The translations under genes were made by a program, and so were the position numbers. This document shows positions 10,884-64,000 of a DNA stretch of 64,000 nucleotides, piece after piece. Each line of letters begins with the position of its first letter. The first letter of the stretch is position 1. The stretch lies in the sequence record OR067834.1; one strand, given 5' to 3'. The DNA is from Escherichia phage KKP 3715. The notes below the pieces were generated by a model. It did no database searches. It worked only from the letters and a program-made list of their open reading frames with translations, and was not told the origin of the DNA.

Positions 10884-11726
10884 ATGATTATGTCTTGTTC
10901 TGCTGAGGTAGAAGCTAACCGACTCCTAGAAGAGTTAACTAAGGGGGATGACTTTACCCTCCCTGACATTGATATGTCTGGTCCTGAATGGGATATCCCT
11001 GGTGGTGATGAATCCCCAATCTTTGGTGCCATTAGCAAAGTAACTAACGAATCGCTTACTACACGTGAAGTAGGTGGTAGTGGTACGTTTGATGCATTAA
11101 TGGAATCTGCACACAATCACCTTAGAGCTGAGTATAAAGCTAACCGTATTACCGGTGGTGAATACACCAAAGCCTATATTGCCATGATGGAATCATGCAT
11201 GAGTAATGCTGTTCAGTTCTTACTTGGTCGTGACCAAGCATACTGGGCTGCTGCTATGGCACAGATTCAGGCAGTTACTGCACGAGTGCAACTGGCAACG
11301 TCTAAGGCACAGTTTGTACTGGCTAAGATTCAGGCACTGTCTGCTAAGAGTGAATATGCTCTTACTAAGATGAAGATTGCTACTGAGTCTGAAACATACT
11401 GTGCTGCATTGTTTAATGTGAATAAAATTCTTCCTGCACAAGAACGTTTGATACAGGAACAATATGAAGTACAACGTGCACAGACCCAAGAAACTCGTTC
11501 TGATGCATTACCTATTCTTGGTTCTATTGGTAAACAGAAAGAGTTGTATTCCCAACAGATTACTTCTTATCAGCGAGATGCAGAAGTTAAAGCGGCTAAG
11601 CTGTTTACTGATGCATGGATTACACAGAAGACTATTGATGAAGGCTTGAACCCACCTAATGGTTTCACTAACGCAAGTATTGATACCATTCTGACCAAGC
11701 TGAAGTCTAACAACGGGCTGAACTAA
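10884..11726 (+). CDS. virion structural protein (hypothetical)
   Basis: 280 aa; AAGAGGAA RBS; in the block of virion genes upstream of the giant polymerase gene. Confidence 0.45.
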
Positions 11727-22800: not shown

Positions 22801-25800
22801 AACAGGCTATCGCTAAATCTGCTCTGGAATATGACCTGCGTGAGGGTGCTACCGATGACCTGTTACGTGCAGGTGCTGAACAGATTGAACGTAACCTACG
22901 TAACATTGCTCTGGGTGTAGATATTCGTCACAAAGTGATGAACCAGGTACAGACCACTGTTGACCAGATGGCTGCTGTAGGTGCTCCTTATGTGAACAAC
23001 GGTAAAATCTCTCTGGAAGGTCTGACTGTAGACCAGCAAGTAGCTAAGCTAAACGAACTATTTGATGCTGAATTAAATAAGCGTCGTGATGCAGTACGTG
23101 CTGCTAAAGCAGAACCTGTTAAAGAAGTGCCAGCTATGGAACAAGTTGGTCGTGTACTGAAGTCTGGTGTACGTCTGTTGTCTAATACTGCTATCACTAA
23201 GCTGGCTAAAGAGATGACTTCTGAACAGCAAGCAGTATTGAAAGAAGTACAGAAATCCCTTGCTGCTAAAGACTACAAGGTTGTTTACGGTACTCCTGCT
23301 CAACTGGATGCTTATGCTATTGAGAAGAACATTACTCGCCCAGCACCGGAAGATATTGAAGCTGCCGAAGCTGGTAATGCATATGGCTGGACTAACTTTG
23401 ATGATAAAACCATCTACTTAGTTACCCCTTCCTTAGAGACTCTGGTTCATGAATTAGTACATGCTTCTACTTTTGAATCTGTACTGGCTCACTATGAGGG
23501 TACTCCTAACGAAGCAGTCCAGAACATCGAAGATCTTATGAACCAGTTCCGTACTCTGGATGTTAAGAACGAATCCCCGGCAGTACGTGAAGCATATGCT
23601 GATGCACTCAATACCATTAACGGTCACTTGTCTAATGGCTTTATTGAACCTGCAATGGCTAAAGCTGCTGCACTGAATGAGTACATGGCATGGGGCTTAA
23701 CCAATCGTGAACTGATTGGTAAGCAGAAGAAGACCACTGCACTGAAAACTATGGTTCAGTCTGTGTATGAAGCAATCAAGCGTCTGGTATTTGGTCGCAA
23801 GAAAGCACCTGCTAATGCAGATGATATGTTCTCCGGATTACTGTTTAACTCTTCAGTAGTTATGCGTGGGCAGGCTCCTACTGCTGCTGTATCCAAAGAC
23901 ACTACCTTGTTCCATAACAAAGCATATGGAGATAATACCCGTCTTGAAGAATTGGGGCAGACCTTTGATAAGCTGATTACTAACTACATTGGTTCTGAAC
24001 CAGTGCAGCAAGTAATTCGTAAAGGTAAGTTCTCTGATGCAGTAGTGAATGCAACTAAAGTAACTCGTGATGTTCAGGCTTATGGCTTTACCATGAATAT
24101 GCAGGAACAGCGATTGTTCACTAATATCGTTGCTGCTTTGGCTACTGAAGCTGCTATTAGTCCGGCTGCTCTTTCTCGTGCACAGGAATACTATGCACAC
24201 GTTACTAAGAACCTGACCGTTGAATCATTCATGGCTGACCCGGATAGTACTAACCCTGCTGACCGTTACTATGCTCAACAGAAGTTCGATACCATCATGG
24301 GTGCTAACAATATTGAGTTTGATGCACAAGGTCGTTCTTCCTTACTGCCTACCTTTGTTGGTCTGGCAATGGTAAGTGAAGAGGTGCGTAACGTACTGGC
24401 TAACATTCCTGTTATGAAAGCAGATAAGAAATCTGGTAATACCGTTGATGCAATGCTGACTAACATTGGTACTGCTGCAATGTCTAGCCTGAACGCTCGT
24501 GTAGCAGGTGATACCAAAGCTACTAACGTACAGGAAGGTATGGATGCACTGGCTCAGACAATCATGCAGACAAGTCTTAATGCACAGTCATTCTATGATT
24601 CCGTTGCTACTCCTAGTGGTAATGCTATTGACCGTGCTAACCAGTATCTGGTGGATTCTATTGATGCACTGTCTACTCGTGCTTTAGAAAGTGCTCGTGA
24701 AGTTGCAGCTAATACCAAGAACCCATTGGTTAAGGGTGCTGCTCATGCTGCACAATTGGTGGCTGCTATTGCTACTGAGAAGAACGGTGCAATCGTGGCA
24801 GAAGGTGTTATGGCTGCAATGAACCAGGGCAAGGTATGGCAACCTTTCCACGACTTGGTTAATGACTTAACTGGTCGTACTAAGAGCAATGCTTCTGTAT
24901 ACGATTTGATTAAAGCAGTTCGTGCACAGGTACAGGCTGACCGTCAGCAGTTCCGTGAACATCTGCCTACCACTATCGCATCTAAGTTCAGCCGTAAGCT
25001 GACTAACGATGAGTGGAAAGCAATGCACACCGGTATGGGTAAAACTGACTTAGCTGTTCTGCGTGACACTATGTCTCTGGCTGAAATCCGTGACCTGCTG
25101 TCTGACCAGAAGATTGTTGACCGTGAAGTGAATAAGCTGGAAGCAGATTTGCAGAAACAAGCTGGTCGTAACTGGCCTCTGATTAACCGTAAATCTAAGC
25201 AACTGGCTCAGTACATGATTAACGGTACGGTCGGTAATAACCTGCTGCGTAATGCTACTGCAATCTCCCGTATGCTGGGTGAACGTCAGGCTGCTCGCTC
25301 TACTGTAGATGTAGCTCAACTGGATAAACTGATTACCCTGTATGCACTGGAAGCAATGAACAAGTCCGACCGTGAGACGTTATCTTCACTGGCTCAGACA
25401 GAAGTTGAGGGAATGGACTTTGCTACTTCTTACCTGGTTGGACAACGTAAAGATGAAATGGCTAAAGCCAAGTCTGATATGCGTGCAACCCTGAACCAGT
25501 ACAAAGGGCATATTCCTAGTGAGACTAAACAGGGTGTTAATCTGATTGTTGCTGAAGATAGCCAGTTTGCTGATTTGATTGAGAAGTCCTATGTACGTCT
25601 GGGTACTTATCAAGGTAGCTCTGCTAACCGTGGTCCGGCACGTAGCTATTACTTTGCACCAGTACAGGCACAGGCTCCTTTCTCACAGGGTATCCTACAG
25701 AACGTTCGTAATACTGCTGGTGGTGTAGACCTCGGCACAGGCTTTACGATGGGTTCCATGGTAGCTGGTCGTATTACTGACAAGCCTTCCGTAGACCGTA

Positions 25801-27251
25801 TCACTAAAGCACTGGCTCGTGGCGAACGTGGTAATGAACCACTGCTGCCTGTATATGACGATAAAGGTAATGTAGTTGCCTATGAGCAATCCATTGACCC
25901 TAATATGCTGAAGCACATTGAGGGTGAGAACCATCTTGCCCGTGCAATCGGCGTATGGCGTGGTCGTCAGGTGGAAGAAGCTAAGGCTCAGCGTTTCAAC
26001 GATATGCTGATTGAGAACCTGCATAGCATGTATGAGAACGACATTAAGATGTCTGCCTCTAATAAGTCCCAGTACGTTAACCTTCTTGGTTCTAAATTGG
26101 ACCCAGTAACTGCTGATGCTCTTAAGCTAATGAATAGTGAAACCCGTCAGAAAGCAGAGAGTTTGTTCGGTGAGGGTGAACTGTGGGTACGTCGTGACAT
26201 GCTTAATGATGCACTTGGTTATCGTGCAGCTTCTGTAGGTGATGCCTGGTCTGGTAATTCTCGTTGGTCTCCGGAAACATTGGATACCTTTAAGAAAGCT
26301 ATGCTGGGTGTATTTGGTAACCGTGCCTATAAGTACACAATGGGTGGTGAGAACCTGGTTCAAAACTTAGTTAAAGAAGCTAAGACTCTGATTGTAGTTA
26401 AGTCAGTAGTCGTACCTGCTGTTAACTTCTTAGCTAACCTTTACCAGATGGTTGCCCGTGGTGTACCGGTTAAGAACATTGCTAAGAGCATTCCACAGAA
26501 GACTGCTGAGATTAACCAGTACCTTAAATCACGTCTGCGTCAGGTAGATGCAGAAGCAGAATTACGTGCAGCTACTAACCCGAACCAGATTCGTAAACTT
26601 AAGGCTGAGATTCAGTCCATTACTGATAGCCATAAGCGTATGAGTATCTGGCCTCTGTTGGAAGCCGGTGAGTTCTCTTCAATTGCAGACGCTGGTATTG
26701 GTCGTGATGACATCCTGATTACTGAAGGCAAACTCCACGAATACATGGATAAGCTGGCAGATAAGTTACCTAAGTCTGTGCGTACTGCCGGTCGTTATGC
26801 ACTTATTACTAAGGATACTGCTCTGTTCCAGGGTATCCAGAAGACGGTTGAGTACTCTGACTTTATCGCTAAAGCAATCATCTATGATGAACTGACTCAG
26901 CGTAAAGGTAAGACTCGTGAAGAAGCACTTGGGCGTGTAACGGAAGAGTTCGTTAACTATGACCGTTTACCTGGTCGCTTCCGTGGGTACATGGAAAGTG
27001 TTGGTTTAATGTGGTTCTACAACTTTAAGATTCGTTCAGCTAAGGTTGCTGTGTCCATGATTCGTAATAACCCTGTACATGCAACAATGGCGATGCTGGC
27101 TCCAACTCCTACCATGTTTGGTAACGTTGGCTTACCTATTCAGGACAACATCTTTAGTATTGCTGCTAAGGGTAGTCTGGATTACTCATGGGGCTTTGGT
27201 CAGGGTCTTCGTGCTCACAACCTGAACCCTTGGATGAACCTGGTAAACTAA
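16899..27251 (+). CDS. virion-encapsidated RNA polymerase (N4 vRNAP-like giant protein)
   Basis: About 3450 codons from the first ATG (AGGAAA RBS). Contains a single-subunit RNAP motif B-like RGIAKNPLTITIYGSG (Rx3Kx7YG) and a motif A-like EADGVTNGPINA; T/E/P/K-rich low-complexity linker near codons 910-990. Size and position match N4 vRNAP as recalled. Confidence 0.7.
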   Translation: MSTFDRLAGFADSITNAKQVDVSTATSQKQAAQGQSPFQLTPENAYNLQTGRVGNLGIGAFEPDSLQADFTQASPLEIINKYGNEQGLQILNSRANAADVVRQDLSKQRTNAEAFGDTLSGVGLGVANTLGGIAALGTGLVNDNAGATIASGMDWLNEGVHNLQSDALNATRKVVQNQNQISAQKNQKLYEEDIKNGESDLVASLSRIGRDAFDSVANTLDNGMAASDGLSEGVGSLFTGGPLIRGVSALGKVMVGGDKAVKGITLAAGLGSRPAQVALSAGRVAAPAIAIGGMEAGGAYQQTASEIMKMSHQELASKSPVYQQHIADGLSPDEARRQTASETGIIAAGLTAPVAAATGPLVSRFELNPLKVGSLAGAGSNMLRETVEEGIQSGFGQYAQNRAIKENVDASRDVLKGVGEQAGLGALYGFGSAGVAQAPGATVKAAGAAAGPALRTTLAGASLVGKTLAKAASPLTNILVQRGEEVAKRNEQASPVADATVNAAAQEAAAQAEQAQATVQEAVDAMDISPEEKAAATQYAADLTQAMKFDPVELEQANPTIREAVSGSTNRVEAIQKMADLVNTAEDPNVQMEAAIQMYDNIMSMDSFINRDPGALANLEQGSPAAAIVDQFSGLMANVQNTPKVLRAFRAIHSMIQEQAEAGKLKATEEANQAQANNIAMAADVSPEVLDADSVNMVLKHASEGKITLGNRQRAALQSAAALLQGAREFDAKAEELGLRPQDIVSKQIKTDESRSNEGQYSALQHAKRIRSAYNSGNFDLASAYLSDFMKFAQHMQNKVGALNEHLISGNADKNKSVHYQALSPSREWVRSRTGLGVNPYDTKSVKFAQQVGLEAKTVADIANALATAYPELNVSHVKVTSLDSRLNKPAAQVVKEFRQGGLDATQSQQTNEPVNQVDESPAPVQEDTTTVQPKAKPVVENKTAPTKETSPKTEEVSTTKSETVEATPTNEDTIQEVAKTKTEMETVFPVYNNEKTPNQFLKAFTLPEEPKSRTVGSESPLADIKQALSSVARFEAFTQKENNVLTGDVIKRYQDLMDFGETLKTTLSERLAKFLANKNVGKRFAEGTEANRWVGGKLLNIVERDGDTFKFNDQLLETAVLAGLQWRLTATQNAAIKDMKDVAAITGVEASLLPEGILAEFENAQTLVEATNSLAQKIESYWGLNRNPNAPLGYTKGIPMAMATEILSSLIEMGEVKESMLDVSEIDPDSNKTVGLYTIEKLDDNDAINKFPTAIEEAVLLEPEEKMYFDDDIPSVAQTQLRNPAVKNTPEQKAALKAEQATEFRVHMPMVNFYEALGRDNILELMGAGTLNPDLLNKNTAKSLEGKNLSVSMAYDSLFGVINQIREQENGLDTPIHYGYNMTRVGRMQMLGKNNPQSSKLVREAILPTFSTIDLSNENSQAFSDFQLGLAQALGIKVHKMSREAMSENLTKALEGNLKPAVDMMVEFDKAGYLPTDAVDILKTSLGDNKSFVALMALMEYARYLNSDDRANFTTPLYVEADGVTNGPINAMVLMTGGKFTPDWIKNTAKGGLFFGRAGKTMNEHCSIDDNVDLYEASTNGLQQALNELRTTYRNNVPVMSQMNHLQKLMDLFIKDFNLNEDGTLDLKRGIAKNPLTITIYGSGARGIAGKMVSAITDTIYERFSDVLQARAADPSISPAMAMFGKEAASEADAQAMLDTFLTSMEALTGNVPVMRKGELSIQQVDGALTGKLDPQKFTVSGNALKNLQENMLHLFVEPMRTGIRNTVGEGLMHSTENLQKATQIQSLVLQDMFQQAVQAKLAEKEKDPTWKKGDFLTQKELNEIQESLSPLAPMIETGSQTFYIAGSENTDVANQVLATNLDDRMRVPMSIYAPSQAGVAGIPFMTIGTGDGMMMQTLSTMKGAPKNTLKIFDGMNIGISDITDASRKANEAVYTSWQGNPIKNVYDSYAKFMKNVDFSKLSDETKQAIAKSALEYDLREGATDDLLRAGAEQIERNLRNIALGVDIRHKVMNQVQTTVDQMAAVGAPYVNNGKISLEGLTVDQQVAKLNELFDAELNKRRDAVRAAKAEPVKEVPAMEQVGRVLKSGVRLLSNTAITKLAKEMTSEQQAVLKEVQKSLAAKDYKVVYGTPAQLDAYAIEKNITRPAPEDIEAAEAGNAYGWTNFDDKTIYLVTPSLETLVHELVHASTFESVLAHYEGTPNEAVQNIEDLMNQFRTLDVKNESPAVREAYADALNTINGHLSNGFIEPAMAKAAALNEYMAWGLTNRELIGKQKKTTALKTMVQSVYEAIKRLVFGRKKAPANADDMFSGLLFNSSVVMRGQAPTAAVSKDTTLFHNKAYGDNTRLEELGQTFDKLITNYIGSEPVQQVIRKGKFSDAVVNATKVTRDVQAYGFTMNMQEQRLFTNIVAALATEAAISPAALSRAQEYYAHVTKNLTVESFMADPDSTNPADRYYAQQKFDTIMGANNIEFDAQGRSSLLPTFVGLAMVSEEVRNVLANIPVMKADKKSGNTVDAMLTNIGTAAMSSLNARVAGDTKATNVQEGMDALAQTIMQTSLNAQSFYDSVATPSGNAIDRANQYLVDSIDALSTRALESAREVAANTKNPLVKGAAHAAQLVAAIATEKNGAIVAEGVMAAMNQGKVWQPFHDLVNDLTGRTKSNASVYDLIKAVRAQVQADRQQFREHLPTTIASKFSRKLTNDEWKAMHTGMGKTDLAVLRDTMSLAEIRDLLSDQKIVDREVNKLEADLQKQAGRNWPLINRKSKQLAQYMINGTVGNNLLRNATAISRMLGERQAARSTVDVAQLDKLITLYALEAMNKSDRETLSSLAQTEVEGMDFATSYLVGQRKDEMAKAKSDMRATLNQYKGHIPSETKQGVNLIVAEDSQFADLIEKSYVRLGTYQGSSANRGPARSYYFAPVQAQAPFSQGILQNVRNTAGGVDLGTGFTMGSMVAGRITDKPSVDRITKALARGERGNEPLLPVYDDKGNVVAYEQSIDPNMLKHIEGENHLARAIGVWRGRQVEEAKAQRFNDMLIENLHSMYENDIKMSASNKSQYVNLLGSKLDPVTADALKLMNSETRQKAESLFGEGELWVRRDMLNDALGYRAASVGDAWSGNSRWSPETLDTFKKAMLGVFGNRAYKYTMGGENLVQNLVKEAKTLIVVKSVVVPAVNFLANLYQMVARGVPVKNIAKSIPQKTAEINQYLKSRLRQVDAEAELRAATNPNQIRKLKAEIQSITDSHKRMSIWPLLEAGEFSSIADAGIGRDDILITEGKLHEYMDKLADKLPKSVRTAGRYALITKDTALFQGIQKTVEYSDFIAKAIIYDELTQRKGKTREEALGRVTEEFVNYDRLPGRFRGYMESVGLMWFYNFKIRSAKVAVSMIRNNPVHATMAMLAPTPTMFGNVGLPIQDNIFSIAAKGSLDYSWGFGQGLRAHNLNPWMNLVN

Positions 27252-55874: not shown

Positions 55875-57092
55875 TTAACTTAATGCATAATCCGTTTCAA
55901 GAATGTCCTGCCAGAGGCTGTCATCCAGCTTACCAGCAGAAAACTCTTGTCCCAGTACCTGAGACAGAATGAAGCCCAGCAAATCACTCTTAGCAATGTC
56001 AGACAGAATCTGATTGTACTGACGACGCAGGTCATTGCCATAGTTAGGGTGACAACGGAAGCAGTCATGTACGGTCATTACAGGGAATGGTTTCTTAGGC
56101 ATGGTATTGATCATAGCCATGATTACATCTGTATCAACCAATGCAATCGTTTCTGAGTCCAGATAGTCAAAGATACGGGTAGACAGGAATCCCGACTTCT
56201 CATAGCTAGCCCATAGTGTGTTAACCATTTCATGGTTAGCATCAGGAACAACTATGTATTCACTGGTTCCTTCACAGAGGGACTTAATATAGTTCACCTG
56301 GTTCATGTTGAAGTTACAACGACGCAGCATCTCACGTACCACCATCCCATCAATAGAGTGGGTGATGTTAGCAGAGAGCATACGAGTCTTCTCTTCAGTA
56401 CCCTGAACCATACGAGTGATGTCGAATGGTTTACCTAAGAAGTTAACGGTCTGTACTTCTGGAACCATGACCTTAATGACAGCATGGTAGTTGTCAGGCA
56501 ATACCCATACGTAACGGTTAGCATCCGGGTTACCACATTGCAGTAAGAACTTGTTCAGTGCCCAAGGTCCACTAGCAACAGTTTCCATTACATTCTCAAA
56601 AGTCTTGAGACGGATACCTTCACCGAATACTTCTTTAGGCTTAGCTTCTGAACCGTAGAACGCAGTCATAACTGCCTGCTTGGTGTCACTACGTTTAATA
56701 CGAGATGCTTCACCAAGGATGTCCAGCATCTTGTGATAGATAACTGTATAAGCATCACGACGTAATGGCTTACCATTCTCTCCCATGTAGTTAACTACGT
56801 TACACAGTTCAGCAGCAGAACGGTCACCAGTCAGGCAAGCCAGTAACTGTAAGCCAGATGATGTAGCATCCAGAGCTACGGCATAGCCAATAGGCTTACC
56901 AGCTTTCATGTCTTTCCATGCGTTTATACCTGCATAGAACAGTGCAGATTCTTCAGCTTCATCTACCAGATTGAGCAGGTTAGCTTCGTTCTCATCGAAC
57001 CAGCTAATACGTTCATCCCATGTCTTCTTGTCTAAGCCATAGTTGTTAGCGATATCTACTTTCAGGTATTCACGGGCAGTTAACAGTTGCAT
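55875..57092 (-). CDS. T7-like single-subunit RNA polymerase, C-terminal catalytic part (N4 RNAP II large subunit-like)
   Basis: 405 aa; motif A-like DATSSGLQLLA (T7 DGSCSGIQH), motif B-like RSDTKQAVMTAFYGS (T7 RSVTKRSVMTLAYGS), motif C-like VHDCF (T7 HDSF). Confidence 0.65.
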   Translation of the reverse strand: MQLLTAREYLKVDIANNYGLDKKTWDERISWFDENEANLLNLVDEAEESALFYAGINAWKDMKAGKPIGYAVALDATSSGLQLLACLTGDRSAAELCNVVNYMGENGKPLRRDAYTVIYHKMLDILGEASRIKRSDTKQAVMTAFYGSEAKPKEVFGEGIRLKTFENVMETVASGPWALNKFLLQCGNPDANRYVWVLPDNYHAVIKVMVPEVQTVNFLGKPFDITRMVQGTEEKTRMLSANITHSIDGMVVREMLRRCNFNMNQVNYIKSLCEGTSEYIVVPDANHEMVNTLWASYEKSGFLSTRIFDYLDSETIALVDTDVIMAMINTMPKKPFPVMTVHDCFRCHPNYGNDLRRQYNQILSDIAKSDLLGFILSQVLGQEFSAGKLDDSLWQDILETDYALS

Positions 57093-57148
57093 TTTATATT
57101 CCTTTTGCTTCTTGGCTCCCCACTATGGAGAGCCTGCTTATTGGATGA

Positions 57149-57391
57149 TTAACCAGCATTAAAAGATGACAATACTATTCCTGGCTCTACGCCTTCGGTG
57201 GCAATACCAAGGTACTCAACATGTACTTTATCTGGGGAAGAACACCAAGCTGAGTATGTACTCCATTCCCCATCTGGGCTAATAAGACGAGCCTCTTCAG
57301 CAGTTTTAGCTGCTACCACAACAGAATCGAATGTATCCCACCCCTTACGCTCATTCTGGCTAATAAGCCATAGCTTTAATATCTCACTCAT
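57149..57391 (-). CDS. hypothetical protein between the two RNAP genes
   Basis: 80 aa ORF overlapping the upstream gene by 8 nt. Confidence 0.35.
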   Translation of the reverse strand: MSEILKLWLISQNERKGWDTFDSVVVAAKTAEEARLISPDGEWSTYSAWCSSPDKVHVEYLGIATEGVEPGIVLSSFNAG

Positions 57392-58202
57392 CGTTTACTA
57401 ACTCCTTATCAGCGAACTCCAGTACAGCTTTGTTGTAGCTGGTTCCCTGATAGTTGATGTGATAGCCCTGAGCGTAAGTACGCCCACGTTTGTCATATTT
57501 GTGACCCAGTGAGAAGTTATTACCTTCCTGAGTCACTAACTCCATTACTTCCTTAGCAGTACGGCTGTACTTCTCAAAGGCTTTAACACGTTTCTCATAT
57601 TCCTGACGGGTTTCACCCTCTTTGGGTTTATCCATGTTAGGACGAGAGTCTTTTACATAGTTAGCAACGTCCCAGTTAATACAGAGACGTTGGTTGTTCA
57701 TACGGTTGATGTGGTCAAGGCAGACATCCATCTCATGATGGTTCTTCTTGAGGATAATGCTTCCTTTGGTCTGGTAGTATCCAGTATCCCTGTTAGTTCT
57801 GACAGGATTAGGAGCACTTACGATAGGTAATGGATACTGGAATGCTTCCAGTTCCATCTGAACATCTTCACTAATCTCATAGATAACACCGAATTTGTCG
57901 ATGGTAGGGTCATAGTTGAAGCAGTCATTCTCTGCCATCTTATACAGACAGTCGGCGATGTACTGAGCATCATCTGAATGGCTCATGAGAGAGCCAATCA
58001 TAGTCTGGATGTCAGCACGTTTATGTAGGGCAATCTGCACCATTGCATCAATGAGCAGCTTATAATCAATTTCTAAATAGGCAGCGAATGCCTTAAAGTC
58101 AATTTCTTTGGAGTCCTCGAATTCCTTCCTCATGCGAGGCAGTAATTGATTTTTATTAAATAGGACTTCAAGCTGCTTCTGATGTTCAATAGATGAGTAC
58201 AT
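57384..58202 (-). CDS. T7-like RNA polymerase, N-terminal part (N4 RNAP II small subunit-like)
   Basis: 272 aa; HKYDKRGRTYAQGYHINYQGTSYNKA resembles the T7 RNAP segment around DWRGRVYA; separate ORF from the catalytic part. Confidence 0.5.
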   Translation of the reverse strand: MYSSIEHQKQLEVLFNKNQLLPRMRKEFEDSKEIDFKAFAAYLEIDYKLLIDAMVQIALHKRADIQTMIGSLMSHSDDAQYIADCLYKMAENDCFNYDPTIDKFGVIYEISEDVQMELEAFQYPLPIVSAPNPVRTNRDTGYYQTKGSIILKKNHHEMDVCLDHINRMNNQRLCINWDVANYVKDSRPNMDKPKEGETRQEYEKRVKAFEKYSRTAKEVMELVTQEGNNFSLGHKYDKRGRTYAQGYHINYQGTSYNKAVLEFADKELVNDE

Positions 58203-58250
58203 CGCATATTCTCCAATTAGTTAATTACCACAAGGTGCGGAGCACCCTTC

Positions 58251-58598
58251 TTATGACCAGTAGTTGTAAGCATCACCTAAGTGCTTTCTCCACTGTTCAG
58301 GGAGCAGTACATTACCGGTGACATTAACGAATTGATGTGGAAGTAGGTCTTCCGAGATTGCTACTTTGAAATCCCATTGTGGTTTCATAGAAGCATAGGC
58401 AATAAATCCATTAATAAACTTCTGTGTATATTCCTGGCTCAATAATCCATCTGGTCCTTTAGTAGGAATAGCAAAGCTATTGCCATATTGACCATAAGCC
58501 ATACCCCAGCGAGCACCGTGTTTCTTATAAGCTAACTTAGCAGCTCCCTTAGTGTGCTGACCTAAGGTGTTAGTAGTGAATATGAAGATTTCTTTCAT
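58251..58598 (-). CDS. hypothetical early protein
   Basis: 115 aa; Gly-rich motif TKGAAKLAYKKHGARWGMAYGQYGNSFAIPTKG; function not recognised. Confidence 0.4.
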   Translation of the reverse strand: MKEIFIFTTNTLGQHTKGAAKLAYKKHGARWGMAYGQYGNSFAIPTKGPDGLLSQEYTQKFINGFIAYASMKPQWDFKVAISEDLLPHQFVNVTGNVLLPEQWRKHLGDAYNYWS

Positions 58599-58601
58599 GG
58601 G

Positions 58602-58991
58602 CTATCCTTTTGGATTTTCTACAAAATATTTATACATAGCTTTTACTAGCTTCTCTTTAATAACCTCACCATGACATGGTTTCGGATAACAGAAGCACTG
58701 TAAGGCTAGTCCTTTCTCGTCAATGGCTTTATTACCCAGACGATTAAGTTCATCCAGTACAACTGGATTTCCTTTATCAATCTGTTCTTGCAGCCAGACC
58801 TTATACTTAGCAATTACTTGCTCTCTGGTTCCATGTTTACCAATGACGAATGGATTGCCTAATGGTGAGCCACGTCCAATATACTCACCGGATTTACCGT
58901 GATGTTTATTAACAATGATAATTGGACGTGCGGATACACCCAGCAAAGCATTGGTGTTATCACCTAATGCGTTAGTGATTATCTCTTTCAT
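58602..58991 (-). CDS. DUF4326-like protein (tentative)
   Basis: 129 aa; YIGRGSPLGNPF and CFCYPKPCHGEVI match the motif pattern recalled for the DUF4326 family. Confidence 0.35.
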   Translation of the reverse strand: MKEIITNALGDNTNALLGVSARPIIIVNKHHGKSGEYIGRGSPLGNPFVIGKHGTREQVIAKYKVWLQEQIDKGNPVVLDELNRLGNKAIDEKGLALQCFCYPKPCHGEVIKEKLVKAMYKYFVENPKG

Positions 58992-58992
58992 G

Positions 58993-59217
58993 TTATTTAC
59001 CTTGAATTACTAGGTGAGATTCAAATAATTCAACTTTTGCTGAACTTACTACAGGTATTATTTCATCCGTCTTACAAATACGCATAGCAGAGCATCCAAT
59101 TTTCATCCATAAGTATGTGTTAGAGTCCTCGTTCAGGAAACGGAATACATCACCGTTTGACAGGTCTTGAAATTGGAGCACAGGCAACGGTTTCTTATTA
59201 ATTACTTTAACTTTCAT
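58993..59217 (-). CDS. hypothetical early protein
   Basis: Start moved to the ATG at 59217 with AAGGA RBS. Confidence 0.3.
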   Translation of the reverse strand: MKVKVINKKPLPVLQFQDLSNGDVFRFLNEDSNTYLWMKIGCSAMRICKTDEIIPVVSSAKVELFESHLVIQGK

Positions 59218-59221
59218 TTGA

Positions 59222-59542
59222 TTAATCCTTTGGTTTAAGTACCTGGAAGGCATATACAGGACGTTTACTACGCCATTGGTTCATAGCCAGTTCACTGGCA
59301 GGAGAGCCATCATGTAAGTCATATATGAATGTAATTATATACTCTGGTTCCTCTGGGAAGTTCTCTGTAGAGAATGGTAGACCAGCTTCCTTTAATACAG
59401 GAACCAGTGGTGATTCTGGTTCACAGTAAATAGTGAACTCTTCGTTGAATGCTTTACTGGTCTGAGATACATAATCAATATTACGCATCATCTTATCTAC
59501 ATCTTTAAATGTATTATCATGTACTACTACGATGTTATTCAC
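59222..59542 (-). CDS. hypothetical early protein
   Basis: 106 aa ORF. Confidence 0.35.
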   Translation of the reverse strand: MNNIVVVHDNTFKDVDKMMRNIDYVSQTSKAFNEEFTIYCEPESPLVPVLKEAGLPFSTENFPEEPEYIITFIYDLHDGSPASELAMNQWRSKRPVYAFQVLKPKD

Positions 59543-59796
59543 TCTACTTTCTCCAGGGTTAGGTATACTGTATTTGGTTGAGGTACATAATCACAAAAAC
59601 CAATTTCCTCTTGTCTACCGCTAGACTTCCAAATACAGTTTTCGGTTAGCTTAGGCTTTCTACTAAATCCAATTAGTGATGCATTCTTACTCTTCTGAGG
59701 ACGAGGTAATAAGGCTACATATTTAACCCATAATGGGACTTCAATAGTTTGTCCCATATAGTTAAATGATTTAGTTACAGGGAATGTAATAATCAC
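59539..59796 (-). CDS. hypothetical early protein
   Basis: 85 aa ORF coupled to neighbours. Confidence 0.3.
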   Translation of the reverse strand: MIITFPVTKSFNYMGQTIEVPLWVKYVALLPRPQKSKNASLIGFSRKPKLTENCIWKSSGRQEEIGFCDYVPQPNTVYLTLEKVE

Positions 59797-60156
59797 TTAG
59801 TACCTCACCACTATTACTTTCTTATTATTGAACCGTGTCATAATATCAATCATGTGCTTGGTTCCTTTGGAATTACCATCCCAGAATGCTACAAGAACAT
59901 CTGCGAATTTAGCCATTTCAATATTACGTACATAACCTGCACGCTTACCTAGTCTGTCCCAGTCAGCATGGAACTCATGTATTACCATTCCTGCTTCATT
60001 CCAGAGATTATATGCTGTAAGGTCTGCTCCTCTAGCCATACCACATACAAGTTCAGGTGAATCAGTTATTTCACCTGATTCTACTAGCTTCTGTAATTCA
60101 GCAATCATACGATTGGTGTCAGTGAAGTCACGTCCACCAGCTACAATCAGTTTCAT
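59797..60156 (-). CDS. SLOG/DUF2493-like Rossmann-fold protein (tentative)
   Basis: 119 aa; KLIVAGGRDF...CGMARGADL...AGYVRNIEM follows the pattern recalled for the YspA/DprA-like SLOG family. Confidence 0.35.
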   Translation of the reverse strand: MKLIVAGGRDFTDTNRMIAELQKLVESGEITDSPELVCGMARGADLTAYNLWNEAGMVIHEFHADWDRLGKRAGYVRNIEMAKFADVLVAFWDGNSKGTKHMIDIMTRFNNKKVIVVRY

Positions 60157-60374
60157 TTCTGATACCCCTGTATATAGTTAATACGGCGAATACGCTGAGT
60201 AGATGCCTTAACAGCCATCTGTTGATTCTCTTCTTTGTGCTGATTATTTAACAACTTATCCCATTCTTCCTGGTTCCGTTGTTTCTGCAATATACGTCTA
60301 CAACGTTTATGATTGGCAACTCCACGTCCTTTCTTACAGACTGGGCATATACCATAATCGTTCGTGTACATCAT
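60153..60374 (-). CDS. small basic protein with CxxC (zinc-ribbon-like)
   Basis: 73 aa; GICPVCKKGRG then a Lys/Arg/Gln-rich tail. Confidence 0.3.
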   Translation of the reverse strand: MMYTNDYGICPVCKKGRGVANHKRCRRILQKQRNQEEWDKLLNNQHKEENQQMAVKASTQRIRRINYIQGYQK

Positions 60375-60685
60375 TGGCTTAAAGCCTCCATTAATATTTT
60401 ACGAATAACGTTAACATCAGATTCAGTACCAATTAAACCAACAGGTTTCTTAGTACTATCTGTGACAAAGGATGCAATCCTCTCCATCTCTGCTGTAATT
60501 AATTTGTCACCACTAATAAGACGATTACGAAGGTAAGCCTCATAAGCTACCTCTATATCTTCTACAGTGGTTCTTTCATTACGAGTGAATGGATTACTTA
60601 ATGGGAAGGGTAGATGTACCCGTATATTCCTGTCAGCTACTTTAGCTAAGTGAGGAAGAATACATACTATTTCATTTAGACTCAT
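60371..60685 (-). CDS. hypothetical early protein
   Basis: 104 aa ORF. Confidence 0.35.
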   Translation of the reverse strand: MSLNEIVCILPHLAKVADRNIRVHLPFPLSNPFTRNERTTVEDIEVAYEAYLRNRLISGDKLITAEMERIASFVTDSTKKPVGLIGTESDVNVIRKILMEALSQ

Positions 60686-60893
60686 CGACTAACCTTAATA
60701 CGTGTGACAGTTTCATTAACATAACTGCATCGGATAACTTGCTAGCATCACTATGGATGATAGCTCCATGATTACCTAGTGAATGATATTCTTCACTGGT
60801 TTCTTTAGCGTAATTACTAATAGCCTTAGTTACTTCATACGCACCATACATACGACACATATACTGTAATTGCTCAATGTGTTCTTGTTCCAT
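60672..60893 (-). CDS. hypothetical early protein
   Basis: 73 aa ORF. Confidence 0.3.
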   Translation of the reverse strand: MEQEHIEQLQYMCRMYGAYEVTKAISNYAKETSEEYHSLGNHGAIIHSDASKLSDAVMLMKLSHVLRLVDESK

Positions 60894-60931
60894 TATCCAC
60901 TCCTATTTAAATACATATCTAACTATTCAAG

Positions 60932-60966
60932 AATAAAAAATAGGAGCCTCCTATTGGAGGACTCCT
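60932..60966 (-). terminator. Rho-independent terminator (early region)
   Basis: On the - strand: AGGAGTCCTCC-AAT-AGGAGGCTCCT followed by TTTTTTATTC. Confidence 0.55.
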
Positions 60967-61024
60967 AGTTCTACTAATGCACCGTAGGTTAACAGTGCAC
61001 ACATAATTAATGTTATAGGCCAAT

Positions 61025-61237
61025 TCATATAAATGGATATAGGTAGTTGACTACACAATAGTATATGAACCATAAGCTATAGCCTATGCTCAATCCCTTA
61101 GTTAATGCAGTAACATAACCAAATATTGCAAAACCTCTGGCATCATTATTAGTAACAAAGGTTTTAGTGATATTACCGGCTACATTAGTGAGCCATACGT
61201 TCAGGTACAGTAATACTATAAAGATTATAAAATACAT
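61025..61237 (-). CDS. small membrane protein (hypothetical)
   Basis: 70 aa, two hydrophobic helices. Confidence 0.35.
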   Translation of the reverse strand: MYFIIFIVLLYLNVWLTNVAGNITKTFVTNNDARGFAIFGYVTALTKGLSIGYSLWFIYYCVVNYLYPFI

Positions 61238-61239
61238 GG

Positions 61240-61371
61240 TTAGTTTCCTAAGATTGGATGATTGAAGGTAACAATCTTACGTACTGGTTCAGATGTCTGT
61301 TGCTTAGCAGCTAGACGCTCTTTCATCTTTTGTACGTCAGCTTTGGTTCCCATGATTAATGACTTACGCAT
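61240..61371 (-). CDS. unannotated 43-codon ORF (basic small protein), not in the supplied ORF track
   Basis: ATG at 61371 with GGAG about 9 nt upstream; MRKSLIMGTKADVQKMKERLAAKQQTSEPVRKIVTFNHPILGN; stop lies 2 nt before the next gene's ATG; fills an otherwise empty ~300-nt gap. Confidence 0.3.
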   Translation of the reverse strand: MRKSLIMGTKADVQKMKERLAAKQQTSEPVRKIVTFNHPILGN

Positions 61372-61533
61372 GTTTAGTACTCCACATAAAGTTAAAAGGT
61401 TTATTGTTACGTACAATTCTTACAGCCATTTGATAACCATTGAGTTGCACTACACCATAGTGTCTTTTCTGTACTCCAGTGTGATATCTACGGAAGATAC
61501 ATTCTTCAATGGCATCCTCAATGTTAGTGAATA

Positions 61534-61752
61534 TCACTGGTTCCTCTTTGTGAACTCTTCTGCTTCTTTAGCCCAGAGTTGCTTACGAACTTCTTTAGCT
61601 ACTATGGAAGCAAACAGACACTTAACGAATACAACTGGTAACTTACAGATAAGTACCAGCTTAGTTCTTACCCACTTGGCTCCATTGAGAATGTAACCAC
61701 GCAGGCGATACAGTACATAGCAGAGTATTACAAACGCAATGAAGTCCAACAT
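61534..61752 (-). CDS. small membrane protein (hypothetical)
   Basis: 72 aa, N-terminal hydrophobic helix. Confidence 0.35.
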   Translation of the reverse strand: MLDFIAFVILCYVLYRLRGYILNGAKWVRTKLVLICKLPVVFVKCLFASIVAKEVRKQLWAKEAEEFTKRNQ

Positions 61753-61756
61753 AGTC

Positions 61757-62071
61757 TTATCCTTTCAGGCAGTTAGTATGTGCATAGTTTAAGTTATCCA
61801 AGGTAAATTCTTTACCTAGTTCTATTCTCTTACCACACTCATAGCATTTTTGTGATAGGTAATGTTTTTGCACATTGTGCAGTTTACGGATTTGTTTACG
61901 AGTAGGCTTAGCTACAAAGAAGTAGTCATAAGTACGTTCCCTGTTATCAGCTACAGATACCTGCCAACGAGCATCTAACGACATACCACAGGTGAAACCT
62001 CTAGATGCCATATGCCTTTCTAATGTTTCTACTAATTTCTGAGAGTTATAACGGTTACATAGTACACGCAT
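61757..62071 (-). CDS. early protein, paralog family member 1 (KPTxKQIR motif; C-terminal CxxC...C)
   Basis: 104 aa; AAGGAG RBS; shares W...Y.F.AKPTRKQIRKL with two other early ORFs; ends with CYECGKRIE...NC. Confidence 0.45.
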   Translation of the reverse strand: MRVLCNRYNSQKLVETLERHMASRGFTCGMSLDARWQVSVADNRERTYDYFFVAKPTRKQIRKLHNVQKHYLSQKCYECGKRIELGKEFTLDNLNYAHTNCLKG

Positions 62072-62176
62072 CTTGATTACTCCTTACTCTAAGTTATCTG
62101 CTTCTGTTTACATTTAAGTTTTAGTGACTCTTCGTCGAAAAGCCCCTAAAAGTTAAACTTAGTTTATCGCTGAGTT

Positions 62177-62208
62177 AAAAATAAAAGGACTACCCGAAGG
62201 TAGTCCCT
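62177..62208 (-). terminator. Rho-independent terminator (early region)
   Basis: On the - strand: perfect 8-bp GGACTACC-TTCG-GGTAGTCC followed by TTTTATTTTT. Confidence 0.6.
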
Positions 62209-62215
62209 TAGTTGA

Positions 62216-62512
62216 TTAGAAAGTCAGTTTACGAGCATATTTATTCTCGTCTGCTGGGATGTCAGCAGCCTCTGCTTTCACACGACGAAGTTGAACTTGC
62301 AGGTTAATGATACCTTCTTCACCTGGTTCCAGGTTCTGAGCATATTCGATTAACTGTTCCAGCAAATCGTTCTGTGCACAACGCATAGCACGGAAGTCAG
62401 CATTGCTGCTGTTAGTAGGCAGTGGTTCCTGAGTATCCAGTGGAATACCAGTAGGCAGAGAGATGAATTTCTCATCCTCAGAGCCTTCATTAGCAATATA
62501 ACCAATGTTCAA
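62216..62512 (-). CDS. hypothetical acidic early protein (TTG start in track)
   Basis: 98 aa, strongly acidic; no ATG near the 5' end, only a TTG with weak RBS, so the start is uncertain. Confidence 0.3.
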
Positions 62513-62534
62513 CCAGAACTGAGCCTTAGGCTTA

Positions 62535-62600
62535 GCAGTTTTTAGTTTCAGTGGTAGCAGCAGCGTTAGATTGACCGAAAGTGAATTTTTGAATAGACAT
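62535..62600 (-). CDS. unannotated 22-codon ORF with strong RBS
   Basis: ATG at 62600 preceded by GGAGAG; [22 protein letters not shown]; first ORF downstream of the 62711-62725 hairpin. Confidence 0.25.
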
Positions 62601-62710
62601 TTTGTACTCTCCAGATAAATGATTGTTTGATTTATGGGTTTGTCCGTCGGTGACTAAACCCAAGAAAAGACTTAAGATTTCAATGATTAGTGGATGCATT
62701 TACATCCTTT

Positions 62711-62725
62711 AGACGCGGAGCGTCT
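62711..62725 (-). promoter_or_regulatory. candidate virion-RNAP hairpin promoter (AGACGC-GGA-GCGTCT)
   Basis: 6-bp stem, 3-nt GGA loop, no U-tract; same core as the hairpins at 63045 and 63907; upstream of leftward early ORFs. Confidence 0.45.
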
Positions 62726-62731
62726 TGATAT

Positions 62732-63010
62732 TTACTTGAAGAAATGTGGATAGTCTTCTATGAATTGAGCTAAGTCATGTACATGCTCAATGACAGCTTT
62801 ACGCTTGCACTGGCGTACTTGTTTAGCCGTAGGCTTAGATGTGAAAGCATACTGATGTACAGATGCAGACATAGGGTTATCATCAACTGATATCTCTACA
62901 TCTACGGCCCAGTGTGCAGGATTAGAAGTGTACATCATTTGAGATTTAGTAAATGTAGTTGAATGATTAAATGGTGGTACATAGTGGATTGAGGTATGAA
63001 TAGTACGCAT
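62732..63010 (-). CDS. early protein, paralog family member 2 (KPTxKQVR motif)
   Basis: 92 aa; GGAGAT RBS; HWAVDV...YAFTSKPTAKQVRQ aligns with the other two paralogs. Confidence 0.45.
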   Translation of the reverse strand: MRTIHTSIHYVPPFNHSTTFTKSQMMYTSNPAHWAVDVEISVDDNPMSASVHQYAFTSKPTAKQVRQCKRKAVIEHVHDLAQFIEDYPHFFK

Positions 63011-63044
63011 AGCTTAATCTCCAATAGTTGAATGATATCCAATA

Positions 63045-63057
63045 GACGCGGAGCGTC
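63045..63057 (-). promoter_or_regulatory. candidate virion-RNAP hairpin promoter (GACGC-GGA-GCGTC)
   Basis: 5-bp stem, GGA loop, about 35 nt upstream of the ORF starting at 63010. Confidence 0.45.
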
Positions 63058-63091
63058 GTTACCTTACAGGCAACGCCTGCGGTCTGGTTTT

Positions 63092-63454
63092 TTAAGCATA
63101 CTGTGCAGTTTCTTTACGGAATGCACGTCGTAGTTTACGGATTTGTTTCTTTGTAGGTTTAGCATGGAATGTATGACATTCAATAATACGTAGTCTGTAC
63201 TTGATGACACCCTCTTCAGTGAACCATAGTTTCCAGCAAGCAAGGCTATGACCACCAAAGGTTATTCCTGGTTTTACGTAGTAAACATCAGTATTGAATC
63301 GCATTTTTACTTCTCCGTTAGCAGGATGGATTTTACTTTTTTGACCATTACCATAGTCAGTATTTACCAGAGGTTTTCCCATATGTACGGAAACCATAAC
63401 AACAAGTGCAAGGGCAATAACAATTGTGATTAGTGCATCTATTACTTTGCTCAT
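63092..63454 (-). CDS. early protein, paralog family member 3 (N-terminal membrane anchor, KPTKKQIRKL motif)
   Basis: Start moved to the ATG at 63454 (track start is TTG); N-terminal hydrophobic helix IDALITIVIALALVVMV; C-terminal CWKLW...HTFHAKPTKKQIRKL. Confidence 0.4.
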   Translation of the reverse strand: MSKVIDALITIVIALALVVMVSVHMGKPLVNTDYGNGQKSKIHPANGEVKMRFNTDVYYVKPGITFGGHSLACWKLWFTEEGVIKYRLRIIECHTFHAKPTKKQIRKLRRAFRKETAQYA

Positions 63455-63504
63455 AGTAGGATTCTCTTTTAACTTTTTATGCAAACTAGACTATCTATCT
63501 AATG

Positions 63505-63533
63505 TTTATAAAAGGAGACTCCGAAGAGCCTCC
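63505..63533 (-). terminator. Rho-independent terminator (early region)
   Basis: On the - strand: AGGAGGCTC-TTCG-GAGTCTCCT (one mismatch) followed by TTTTATAAAC. Confidence 0.45.
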
Positions 63534-63540
63534 TATTGAT

Positions 63541-63864
63541 TTAGTCTTTAGTCAGGATGTCAATTACTTTTGAATATTCTGCATTATAGATACGAGCGTT
63601 CTCTGAATCTTTGCAGAATTCTTCAATACTTTTCTTACGCATAGTCTCGTTCATAGCTGTTTCTTCAGCTAATTTGTTTACGAATGTATGCATTTCTAAT
63701 TTAGTACGAATGGCTTGTTTCTCTGCCATAGTAGATACATATGAGTTAAGCATACCTACTGCTTTAGTAGCTGTGCCAAATGTATCTGCAACAGTAGTAG
63801 CAGCAGAGTTAACAGTACCCAGTAAAGTTCCTGCGGTCATACGTACAGTAGCGGTAGTAGTCAT
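63541..63864 (-). CDS. hypothetical early protein
   Basis: 107 aa; first ORF downstream of the hairpin at 63907-63921. Confidence 0.4.
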   Translation of the reverse strand: MTTTATVRMTAGTLLGTVNSAATTVADTFGTATKAVGMLNSYVSTMAEKQAIRTKLEMHTFVNKLAEETAMNETMRKKSIEEFCKDSENARIYNAEYSKVIDILTKD

Positions 63865-63906
63865 GATGATAGCTCCAATAGTTGATGATAGGACGACATG
63901 TCCATA

Positions 63907-63921
63907 ACATGCGGAGCATGT
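63907..63921 (-). promoter_or_regulatory. candidate virion-RNAP hairpin promoter (ACATGC-GGA-GCATGT)
   Basis: 6-bp stem, GGA loop, about 45 nt upstream of the ORF starting at 63864. Confidence 0.4.
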
Positions 63922-64000
63922 GTAACGTGTAAGGTGGGGTAGGGTAGTGGCTACAGGGTCAACATACCGGGGGGGATGGTTGAGTGTAAGGGTGTAGCCC

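Follow-up and report, generated by a model that had tools for sequence, protein, structure and literature searches.

The DNA analysed here (the window, ~64 kb) belongs to a G7C-like N4 relative (Gamaleyavirus) and is ~95% identical to deposited phages. The early genes near its end lie on the minus strand and run leftward, and the first of them encodes a homolog of N4 gp1 (63541-63864, 107 aa, phrog_5020), which was recovered by tblastn with N4 gp1 at 66% identity (E=7e-45). A Rho-independent terminator comes after it on the minus strand (63509-63534; 9-bp stem, UUCG loop, U tract; RNA fold -14.7 kcal/mol, z=-4.5), and the SP5M record lists a terminator at the corresponding position. Two paralogous minus-strand ORFs come next, at 63092-63454 and at 62732-63010 (92 aa), both matched by phrog_12748 and phrog_2375; tblastn with N4 proteins found no N4 homolog of the latter. 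The homolog of N4 gp2, the RNAPII cofactor, was located by tblastn with N4 gp2 at 62216-62699 on the minus strand. It is split over two reading frames, with N4 residues 1-54 encoded at 62699-62538 and residues 56-161 at 62536-62219, while most relatives examined have gp2 as a single intact ORF. A second Rho-independent terminator (62184-62209, minus strand; 11-bp stem, UUCG loop, U tract; -16.7 kcal/mol, z=-4.9) lies behind it. Further along, RNAPII subunit A (57384-58202, minus strand) is 66% identical to N4 gp15 (E=1e-123) and matches the profile phrog_2166, 'N4-like RNA polymerase' (E=4e-117); the orthology with N4 also takes in gp16.

Four small stem-loops of identical design are confined to 58234-63921, within this early region. 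The sequence-only reading had reported three of them, AGACGC-GGA-GCGTCT at 62711-62725 (6 bp stem), GACGC-GGA-GCGTC at 63045-63057 (5 bp) and ACATGC-GGA-GCATGT at 63907-63921 (6 bp), and all three were read directly from the sequence exactly as described. A fourth, GGTGC-GGA-GCACC at 58234-58246 (5 bp), had been overlooked. The 5-6 bp stem and the GGA loop closed by G-C pairs hold at all four sites. The GCGGAGC heptamer at their core occurs four times in the window, always on the plus strand and never outside a hairpin of this kind (3-nt loop, 5-6 bp stem). As the plus strand is the template for the leftward early genes, GCGGAGC is on the template side at all four sites. There were no copies of the GCGGAGC hairpin in the remaining ~58 kb of the window, and none on the opposite strand.

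Each hairpin stands ahead of a leftward ORF, as had been claimed, and each has a template CC 11 nt from the loop centre, at the predicted +1/+2, with an ORF start 8-39 nt past the predicted +1. The claimed distance of 35-110 nt from hairpin to ORF needs correction at its upper end, since the value of 110 nt was counted to an internal ATG at 62601 and the hairpin at 62711-62725 is only 12 nt from the gp2 ATG at 62699. By N4 numbering, the loop centre (-11) of the putative promoter at 63907-63921 is 63914 and its transcript would start at 63903 (+1) and 63902 (+2) on the minus strand, where template CC would give RNA 5'-GG; the leader to the gp1 ATG (63864) is 39 nt. The putative promoter at 63045-63057 (-11 at 63051, predicted +1 at 63040) has a leader of 30 nt with a GGAG Shine-Dalgarno sequence before the ATG of the 92-aa ORF at 63010. 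For 62711-62725 (-11 at 62718, predicted +1 at 62707) the leader is 8 nt, and 8-11 nt in relatives. For 58234-58246 (-11 at 58240, predicted +1 at 58229) it is 27 nt with GGAG, followed by the gp15 ATG at 58202. Leader length is conserved between the window and its relatives within each promoter type. Because ORF 63092-63454 lies past the gp1 terminator and has no hairpin promoter of its own, this map of transcription units is incomplete.

Small palindromes are common: counting perfect stems of 5 bp or more around a 3-nt loop, the window holds 122. The four sites might thus be chance palindromes, or recombination or packaging signals that lie near the genome end and have nothing to do with transcription, and one of them is indeed less than 100 nt from the genome terminus. 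However, all four heptamers of the window lie in hairpins, whereas 1000 Markov-1 simulations of the window gave a mean of 0.045 such hairpins and a maximum of 2. In addition, the other three sites, all of them directly before an ORF, are 1-6 kb away from the terminus. We regard this explanation as extremely unlikely.

Other palindromes of the window were inspected as candidates and set aside. The only other GGA-loop hairpin, CATGAT-GGA-ATCATG centred at 11190, is not closed by G-C pairs and appears to be a coincidental palindrome. A search for RRR loops returned only AAA- and AGA-loop palindromes at 58474, 25621, 17003 and 15841, none with G at -10, and these were treated as chance occurrences; the one at 58474 has T at its predicted +1.

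In DNA folding, the minimum-free-energy structure contained each of the four hairpins; their energies of -4.3 to -5.3 kcal/mol (z-scores against shuffles of -1.1 to -3.3) are unremarkable individually. The signal is the motif and not its thermodynamics, and folding energy alone fails to discriminate the sites. In a scan of 57000-64000 against Rfam at permissive thresholds, the gp2 terminator gave a sub-threshold chance match to U6atac (E=0.31) and nothing else was hit, so the hairpins are explained by no known RNA family. Sigma-70 promoter-like sites were rarer in the scanned region than in shuffles (14 versus 23.6), which fits a region that is unread by host RNAP early in infection.

Because every hairpin sits in an intergenic gap immediately past a stop codon, they could also serve as punctuation of the early operons, either as transcription terminators or as stem-loops at the RNA level. 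Two of them, 62711-62725 and 58234-58246, were scored 'terminator-like' for the plus strand by a consensus scan, and in many relatives GGTTTT follows the template-strand hairpin. But the region has no plus-strand genes to terminate. Its genes are on the minus strand, where the hairpin RNA would carry the loop UCC, with an A/T-mixed spacer and then GG behind it; no U tract follows on this sense strand, in agreement with the earlier claim. Genuine terminators in the region are built differently, from a stem of 9-11 bp and a UUCG loop, with a U tract behind them on the sense strand. A terminator role would also leave unexplained the invariant heptamer, the single orientation, the CC 11 nt away and the identity with proven N4 promoters, and it is accordingly highly improbable.

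The N4 promoters P1-P3 offer a far better match. They have been studied experimentally in detail (Haynes & Rothman-Denes 1985; Glucksmann 1992; Dai 1998; Davydova 2007; Gleghorn 2008; summarised in PMC4496689), and the contacts of the polymerase on them are given in PMC4496689. On the template strand the N4 bases are -8G, -9C, -10G, -11G and -12A, and transcription begins (+1) eleven nt away from the centre of the loop (PMC4496689); P2 and P3 read GCGGAGC and P1 reads GCGAAGC. The heptamer of the window is identical to that of N4 P2 and P3, on the same template strand, and the 5-7 bp stem, the 3-nt GGA loop, the A/T-rich 4-nt spacer and the CC at +1/+2 are alike as well. The sequence-only reading had pointed to the N4-type shape and left this heptamer identity unrecognised.

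Position agrees with sequence. Three sites of the window lie upstream of the gp1, gp2 and gp15 homologs and are positional orthologs of P1 (63907-63921), P2 (62711-62725) and P3 (58234-58246), respectively. P1 is ~90 nt from the genome end in both phages (87 nt to the window end, 96 nt to the genome end in N4), and its flanks ACATGTCCATAA...GTGTAACGT are common to both, while the stem between them has changed and is still paired. At P2, the predicted RNA 5'-GGAUGUAAAUGCAUCC parallels N4 5'-GGAUGAAGUAAUGCAUCC, and at P3 the flank TTAATTACCA(C/A)AA is common to the window and N4. The two phages do differ in several respects. N4 has three promoters and the window four sites; the extra one, at 63051, has no N4 counterpart, and the accessory ORF behind it is missing from N4. 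The P1 loop is GGA in the window and GAA in N4, and stem sequences have changed with complete pairing. The spacers from -1 to -4 are TTTA, AATA, ATAA and ACAA in the window, compared with AAAA (P2/P3) and ATAA (P1) in N4. Lastly, the promoters are proven by experiment in N4, whereas in the window they are predicted from sequence.

The expected reader of such promoters is also encoded in the window. The giant polymerase gene noted earlier at 16899-27251 (plus strand) is real and specifies a virion RNA polymerase (vRNAP) of 3450 aa that is 67% identical to N4 gp50 and 72% identical to N4 over the mini-vRNAP domain. Its PDB matches include 3C3L and 2PO4, and the closest solved structure is N4 mini-vRNAP, including the promoter complex 3C3L. 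Every base-contacting residue of N4 mini-vRNAP is kept: the window polymerase has the same contact residues, with K114, R119, W129, K849, K850, D901 and R904 all conserved, as are the catalytic D559 and D951. K267 of N4, a residue of the beta-intercalating hairpin and not a base contact, is N in the window.

We then considered N4, 20 IMG/VR relatives and the window together (22 sources, 365 kb), selecting on the heptamer alone. Hairpins with a stem of at least 5 bp were formed by 52 of the 57 GCGGAGC heptamers, or by 52 of 53 when only template-strand heptamers are counted. All 52 hairpins occupy the template strand and lie either upstream of the early region or inside it, so that the relatives repeat the confinement and single orientation seen in the window. 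CC, which was not a selection criterion, occupies +1/+2 in 51 of them. Hairpin copies scattered through coding regions in both orientations, which the sequence-only reading had named as evidence against promoters, were found neither in the window nor in the relatives.

Variation within the stems is equally informative. At positions -6/-16 and -7/-15, all four Watson-Crick pair types occur with no unpaired cells, and both sides of the pair have changed in 25 of 47 and 24 of 47 sequences, respectively. The covariation score was 0.483 versus 0.120 in shuffles, for an alignment preselected for stems of at least 5 bp. Among orthologous P1 sites with conserved flanks, the stem is GTTGC/GCAAC in some and CATGC/GCATG in others. 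The identity of the stem bases is thus free provided that pairing stays. Meanwhile, the contacted bases (-8 to -14) are invariant and the +1/+2 CC is kept in 51 of 52 hairpins, down to ~53% gp15 identity to the window, while uncontacted stem and spacer positions drift, a pattern that fits the contacts in the published crystal structure. Conservation of motif, orientation and CC over such distances runs against chance, and the census and the stem variation together effectively refute the reading of the sites as chance palindromes or packaging signals.

Similar hairpins have been described in other N4-like phages. For Klebsiella phage KP8 (Kaypoctavirus), in silico predictions list four putative hairpin promoters, P1-P4, in Table 1 of PMC6950046. 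Written on the non-template strand, each has a GCTCCGC core, then a spacer, then GG. They lie at the left genome end, where P3 and P4 are placed ahead of the genes for the RNA-polymerase 1 subunits (PMC6950046). The same stems occur in the KP8-like loci of our census set (L012-L015). KP8 nevertheless belongs to a separate, sister genus; the KP8-like loci have ~70% gp15 identity, and their stem sequences and accessory ORFs are unlike those of the window. Only distantly related, the Pseudomonas phages LUZ7 and LIT1 share small 3-nt-loop hairpins in the early region, a virion RNAP and a start with G (PMC3715699, PMC9163698), but their stems are 4-5 bp or more. The LUZ7 early hairpin promoters were confirmed by mapping of transcription start sites, with nine early sites reported and the hairpin sequence unstated (PMC9163698). 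In LUZ7 the distance between hairpin centre and mapped start is 13-14 nt instead of 11 (PMC9163698), so spacing can differ between lineages; despite this, the conserved CC favours the 11-nt spacing here. Among the open-access papers searched, a set to which the first description of G7C (Kulikov et al. 2012, Virology) does not belong, we found no account of early promoters for G7C or Gamaleyavirus, nor of transcript 5' ends or biochemistry for any member of that genus.

LUZ7 also raises another candidate reader of the hairpins, the second polymerase of the phage, heterodimeric RNAPII (gp15/gp16). In the mapped middle promoters of LUZ7, for which this has been proposed, GC-rich hairpin stems of 6 bp or more carry loops of 3-4 nt (PMC9163698), which makes hairpin recognition by RNAPII conceivable in this family. 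The closer model is N4, whose RNAPII starts at T from promoters without a hairpin (PMC9163698), and the motif is missing from the middle-gene region of the window. Moreover, two of the sites precede gp2 (the RNAPII cofactor) and gp15 (an RNAPII subunit), which are needed before RNAPII exists, and at every contacted base the sites are identical to N4 promoters that are bound and used by vRNAP. RNAPII is therefore a very unlikely reader.

Taken together, the four GC-GGA-GC hairpins are very probably N4-type early promoters for the virion RNA polymerase encoded at 16899-27251, with leftward starts predicted at 63903, 63040, 62707 and 58229 by analogy with N4. The vRNAP reading had been put forward earlier, and the motif identity with N4, the orthology to P1-P3 and the conserved contact residues lend it support. 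The support for promoter function comes from homology.

If N4 biochemistry applies, the left genome end would be injected first and its DNA supercoiled by host gyrase, and the inverted repeats would extrude as small cruciforms. Host SSB would melt the non-template arm and spare the template-strand hairpin, in which a sheared G:A pair may stabilise the GGA loop. On this model, activity would require a single-stranded or supercoiled template. The polymerase would then bind through base contacts to -11G and -10G in the loop and to -9C and -8G in the stem, and RNA would begin with G opposite template C, 11 nt from the loop centre. The resulting units would comprise gp1 (ending at 63534-63509), the accessory ORF, gp2 (ending at 62209-62184), and gp15/gp16 for the RNAPII subunits.

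The extra promoter draws attention to the gp1-gp2 interval. In relatives, this interval contains 0-1 extra sites, with different stems, before ORFs of varied length. The extra promoter at 63051 and the P2 hairpin at 62718 have 14 identical nt in common, which would fit a local duplication. We tentatively suggest, as a possibility that is less likely than its opposite, that the interval is a variable slot in which accessory ORFs arrive as self-contained units with their own vRNAP hairpin promoter. If so, a hairpin of 13-15 nt would be a portable promoter module that admits new genes to the immediate-early class.

The hairpin promoters themselves are a correct but ordinary finding, being a close match to the well-studied N4 promoters, and the same motif has already been reported for KP8. 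They extend N4 promoter biochemistry to a wider phage group and open no new question. Deposited records are without these promoters; that of SP5M, for instance, has terminators annotated and no promoters. Hence the main gain is annotation, in the form of immediate-early units and predicted starts for this Gamaleyavirus and, by extension, for ~20 related genomes.

A search of the 64-kb window for the GCGGAGC core returned four copies, every one on the + strand; the window and these counts stop ~8 kb short of the genome's end. Three of them are the mini-hairpins listed in the sequence-only reading and present in the sequence, namely AGACGC-GGA-GCGTCT (62711-62725), GACGC-GGA-GCGTC (63045-63057) and ACATGC-GGA-GCATGT (63907-63921), while the fourth, GGTGC-GGA-GCACC (58234-58246), had been overlooked. 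The sites are named here by their loop centres, 62718, 63051, 63914 and 58240. When the window was scanned for perfect hairpins (3-nt loop, stem of 5 bp or more), 122 were counted. Five have a GGA loop: the four GCGGAGC sites and CATGAT-GGA-ATCATG at 11190, whose loop is not closed by G-C pairs. Under a Markov-1 model of the window, 1000 simulations produced a mean of 0.045 and at most 2 GCGGAGC hairpins, against 4 observed. These simulations, together with the heptamer census and the conservation of the sites in relatives described below, exclude a chance origin. When folded as single-stranded DNA, each hairpin was contained in the minimum-free-energy structure (-4.3 to -5.3 kcal/mol). The energies of the four sites were nothing unusual compared with shuffles, so it is the motif rather than stability that carries the evidence. 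Rfam gave nothing relevant to the hairpins.

Megablast placed the window in Gamaleyavirus, among the G7C-like N4 relatives of the family Schitoviridae. Its middle and late regions showed about 95% identity over about 95% of their length to records such as Bas96, E20 and PhAPEC7. For the early region, the closest records were 87-95% identical across roughly 50-70% of the sequence. None of the Megablast records matched the window exactly. All plausible genes from 55 kb to 64 kb run leftward. By tblastn with N4 early proteins, homologs of gp1 (63864-63553), gp2 (62699-62219), gp15 (58196-57393) and gp16 (57092-55878) were located on the - strand, and thus the window is written in the opposite orientation to the usual N4 map. 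Its right end falls about 10 nt or less from the left terminus of the genome: the first promoter is 87 nt from the window end, against 96 nt from the genome end in N4 and 95-97 nt in two relatives with complete genomes.

The hairpins might alternatively be read as terminators. However, no U tract follows them on the sense (-) strand (the sequence-only reading had noted the lack of a U tract), and the two textbook terminators of this region are built very differently. Those after gp1 (63534-63509, - strand, -14.7 kcal/mol) and gp2 (62209-62184, - strand, -16.7 kcal/mol) have UUCG loops, U tracts, stems of 9-11 bp and fold z values of about -4.5 to -4.9. The equivalent terminators are annotated in the SP5M record, which carries no promoter annotation.

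In N4 the promoter is a GC-rich heptamer centred at -11 with inverted repeats on either side (PMC4496689). Written on the template strand 5'->3' from the reference record NC_008720, P1 (ahead of gp1, centre 96) reads CATGTCCATAA-GTTGC-GAA-GCAAC-GTGTAACGT, P2 (before gp2, centre 565) CATCCAAAA-GAAGC-GGA-GCTTC, and P3 (before gp15, centre 4554) TTACCAAAA-GCTGC-GGA-GCAGC. The N4 heptamer, 5'-G(-8)C(-9)G(-10)G(-11)A(-12)G(-13)C(-14)-3', equals the window's + strand sites exactly, and the + strand is the template for leftward genes. Site 63914 shares both flanks with N4 P1 (ACATGTCCATAA...GTGTAACGT), with a different but still fully paired stem. Site 58240 shares the TTAATTACCA flank of P3, and the RNA predicted from 62718, 5'-GGAUGUAAAUGCAUCC, resembles 5'-GGAUGAAGUAAUGCAUCC of N4 P2 in running straight into the gp2 start codon. 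Given these shared flanks and the similar gp2 leader, the counterparts of P1, P2 and P3 are 63914, 62718 and 58240, respectively. Site 63051 is a predicted additional promoter, ahead of a small ORF (62732-63010, - strand). By homology, then, the four hairpins are very probably N4-type early promoters for the virion RNA polymerase (vRNAP), as had been proposed from the sequence.

The giant polymerase gene paired with them in that proposal (16899-27251) encodes 3450 aa and matches N4 gp50 along its whole length at 67% identity, rising to 72% across residues 998-2103, the central mini-vRNAP domain. Among solved structures it is closest to those of N4 mini-vRNAP and full-length vRNAP, the promoter complex 3C3L being one of them. 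In N4, W129 and R119 contact -11G, K114 contacts -10G, D901 contacts -9C/-10G and R904 contacts -8G, and the loop holds a sheared -10G:-12A pair (PMC4496689). With the residue-number offset checked on N4 itself, K114, R119, W129, K849, K850, D901 and R904 were all found in the window's polymerase, as were catalytic D559 and D951; the only difference among the residues compared was K267 of the intercalating hairpin, replaced by N. A second possibility is that the hairpins serve RNAPII, the gp15/gp16 polymerase, since the middle promoters of phage LUZ7 are hairpins. Yet two of the hairpins would drive the genes for gp2 and gp15, both required before RNAPII can act, the motif is missing from the middle region, and it is identical to the vRNAP-bound sites of N4.

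Counting 11 nt from each loop centre, the starts of the putative vRNAP promoters fall at 63903, 63040, 62707 and 58229. The template carries C at each +1 and a second C next to it, so that the predicted RNAs begin with GG. N4 initiates eight nt past -8, and the four start-proximal bases are not contacted (PMC4496689); in agreement, the -1 to -4 spacers here (ATAA, AATA, TTTA, ACAA) are A/T-rich and unconserved. Leaders to the first ORF start would be 39, 30, 8 and 27 nt, respectively. These lengths recur by promoter type in relatives: gp1 has a leader of about 39 nt, gp2 one of 8-11 nt and gp15, in relatives with P3 immediately before it, one of 27-30 nt.

Conservation was assessed in 20 IMG/VR loci encoding gp15 relatives (98% down to 31% identity) plus N4 and the window, 365 kb in all, with the heptamer GCGGAGC as the only criterion. 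It occurred 57 times, and 52 of these copies sit in a hairpin whose stem is 5 bp or longer; four of the five non-hairpin copies came from one distant locus, L018. Each phage has three or four sites. All 52 hairpins lie on the template strand of early genes, bearing out the expected confinement and orientation, and 51 have CC at +1/+2, outside the selection criterion. We then aligned 47 distinct sites (46 from the census with GGA or GAA loops, plus N4 P1). Positions -8 to -10, -12 to -14 and +2 were invariant, -11 was G at 44 sites and A at the other 3, and C stood at +1 in 46. All four Watson-Crick pairs occur at stem positions -6/-16 and -7/-15, with zero mismatches; since this alignment was picked for pairing, its percent-paired figure is partly circular, and the heptamer-only census is the unbiased measure. 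Between orthologous P1 sites with conserved flanks, GTTGC/GCAAC exchanges with CATGC/GCATG, a double compensatory change. The sole site of the 52 without CC, L003:509 (AACGC-GGA-GCGTT), has template G at +1 and no ORF start inside 120 nt, and may be a decayed or non-functional copy.

P3-type promoters lie about 40 nt or about 275-300 nt ahead of gp15, depending on the phage (58240 compared with L004:7727, L006:7701, L009:7724 and L014:5971). In the long arrangement a 76-84 aa ORF, starting 10-11 nt past the predicted start, precedes gp15; the window has the short one.

In N4, gp2 is an essential RNAPII cofactor. Its homolog here is split over two frames, with a stop (...TETKNC*) at 62532-62534 and the remainder in another frame. 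The break falls in 62512-62540, around a T5 run on the + strand (62533-62537). Because gp2 is a single ORF in most relatives examined (N4, L002-L005, L007; L008 is broken differently), the window has one extra A in a sense-strand A4 run, which may reflect either a sequencing error in the homopolymer or a genuine frameshift. The predicted gp2 mRNA begins GGAUG (window 62697-62707, and likewise at the relatives' equivalent promoters), and the Shine-Dalgarno-like bases of its leader are the first three nucleotides only. An in-frame AUG at 62601, 33 codons into gp2, has a strong GGAGAG Shine-Dalgarno, and N4 and relatives likewise read ...SGEYKM... there; gp2 may be made as two proteins, or its start may be misannotated.

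Between gp1 and gp2, ORF 62732-63010 directly follows site 63051 and is preceded by ORF 63092-63454 (- strand). The two are paralogs, both matching phrog_2375 and phrog_12748 (the former ORF a member of phrog_12748), and tblastn with N4 early proteins found no N4 counterpart. No hairpin promoter could be recognised for ORF 63092-63454, which follows the gp1 terminator; of the pair, only ORF 62732-63010 has a predicted one of its own. Upstream of the predicted 63051 promoter, at a distance of 10-35 nt (window 63082-63093), there is a CAGGC-AAC-GCCTG hairpin followed by a GGTCTGGTTTTTT stretch, which may be an upstream element aiding extrusion or what is left of a promoter that was rearranged. 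Among relatives, many P2-type and extra sites (e.g. L002:154, L006:3732, L009:3710, L012:2955) carry (T)GGTTTT directly after the stem on the template strand (-18 to -24), which the window's two corresponding sites lack.

The mechanism is the classic N4 paradigm, and the finding is correct at the level of annotation. Such hairpins are routinely reported in N4-like genome papers, those of the early region of LUZ7 have been TSS-mapped in published work, and four putative promoters with the same core are listed for KP8 of a sister genus (PMC6950046, Table 1). We found no description of these promoters for Gamaleyavirus in the open literature. Novelty is mild and limited to two aspects: gp1 and gp2 are separated by an additional unit of predicted promoter plus ORF, and the bases that stay invariant throughout the family are exactly those contacted in the crystal structure.
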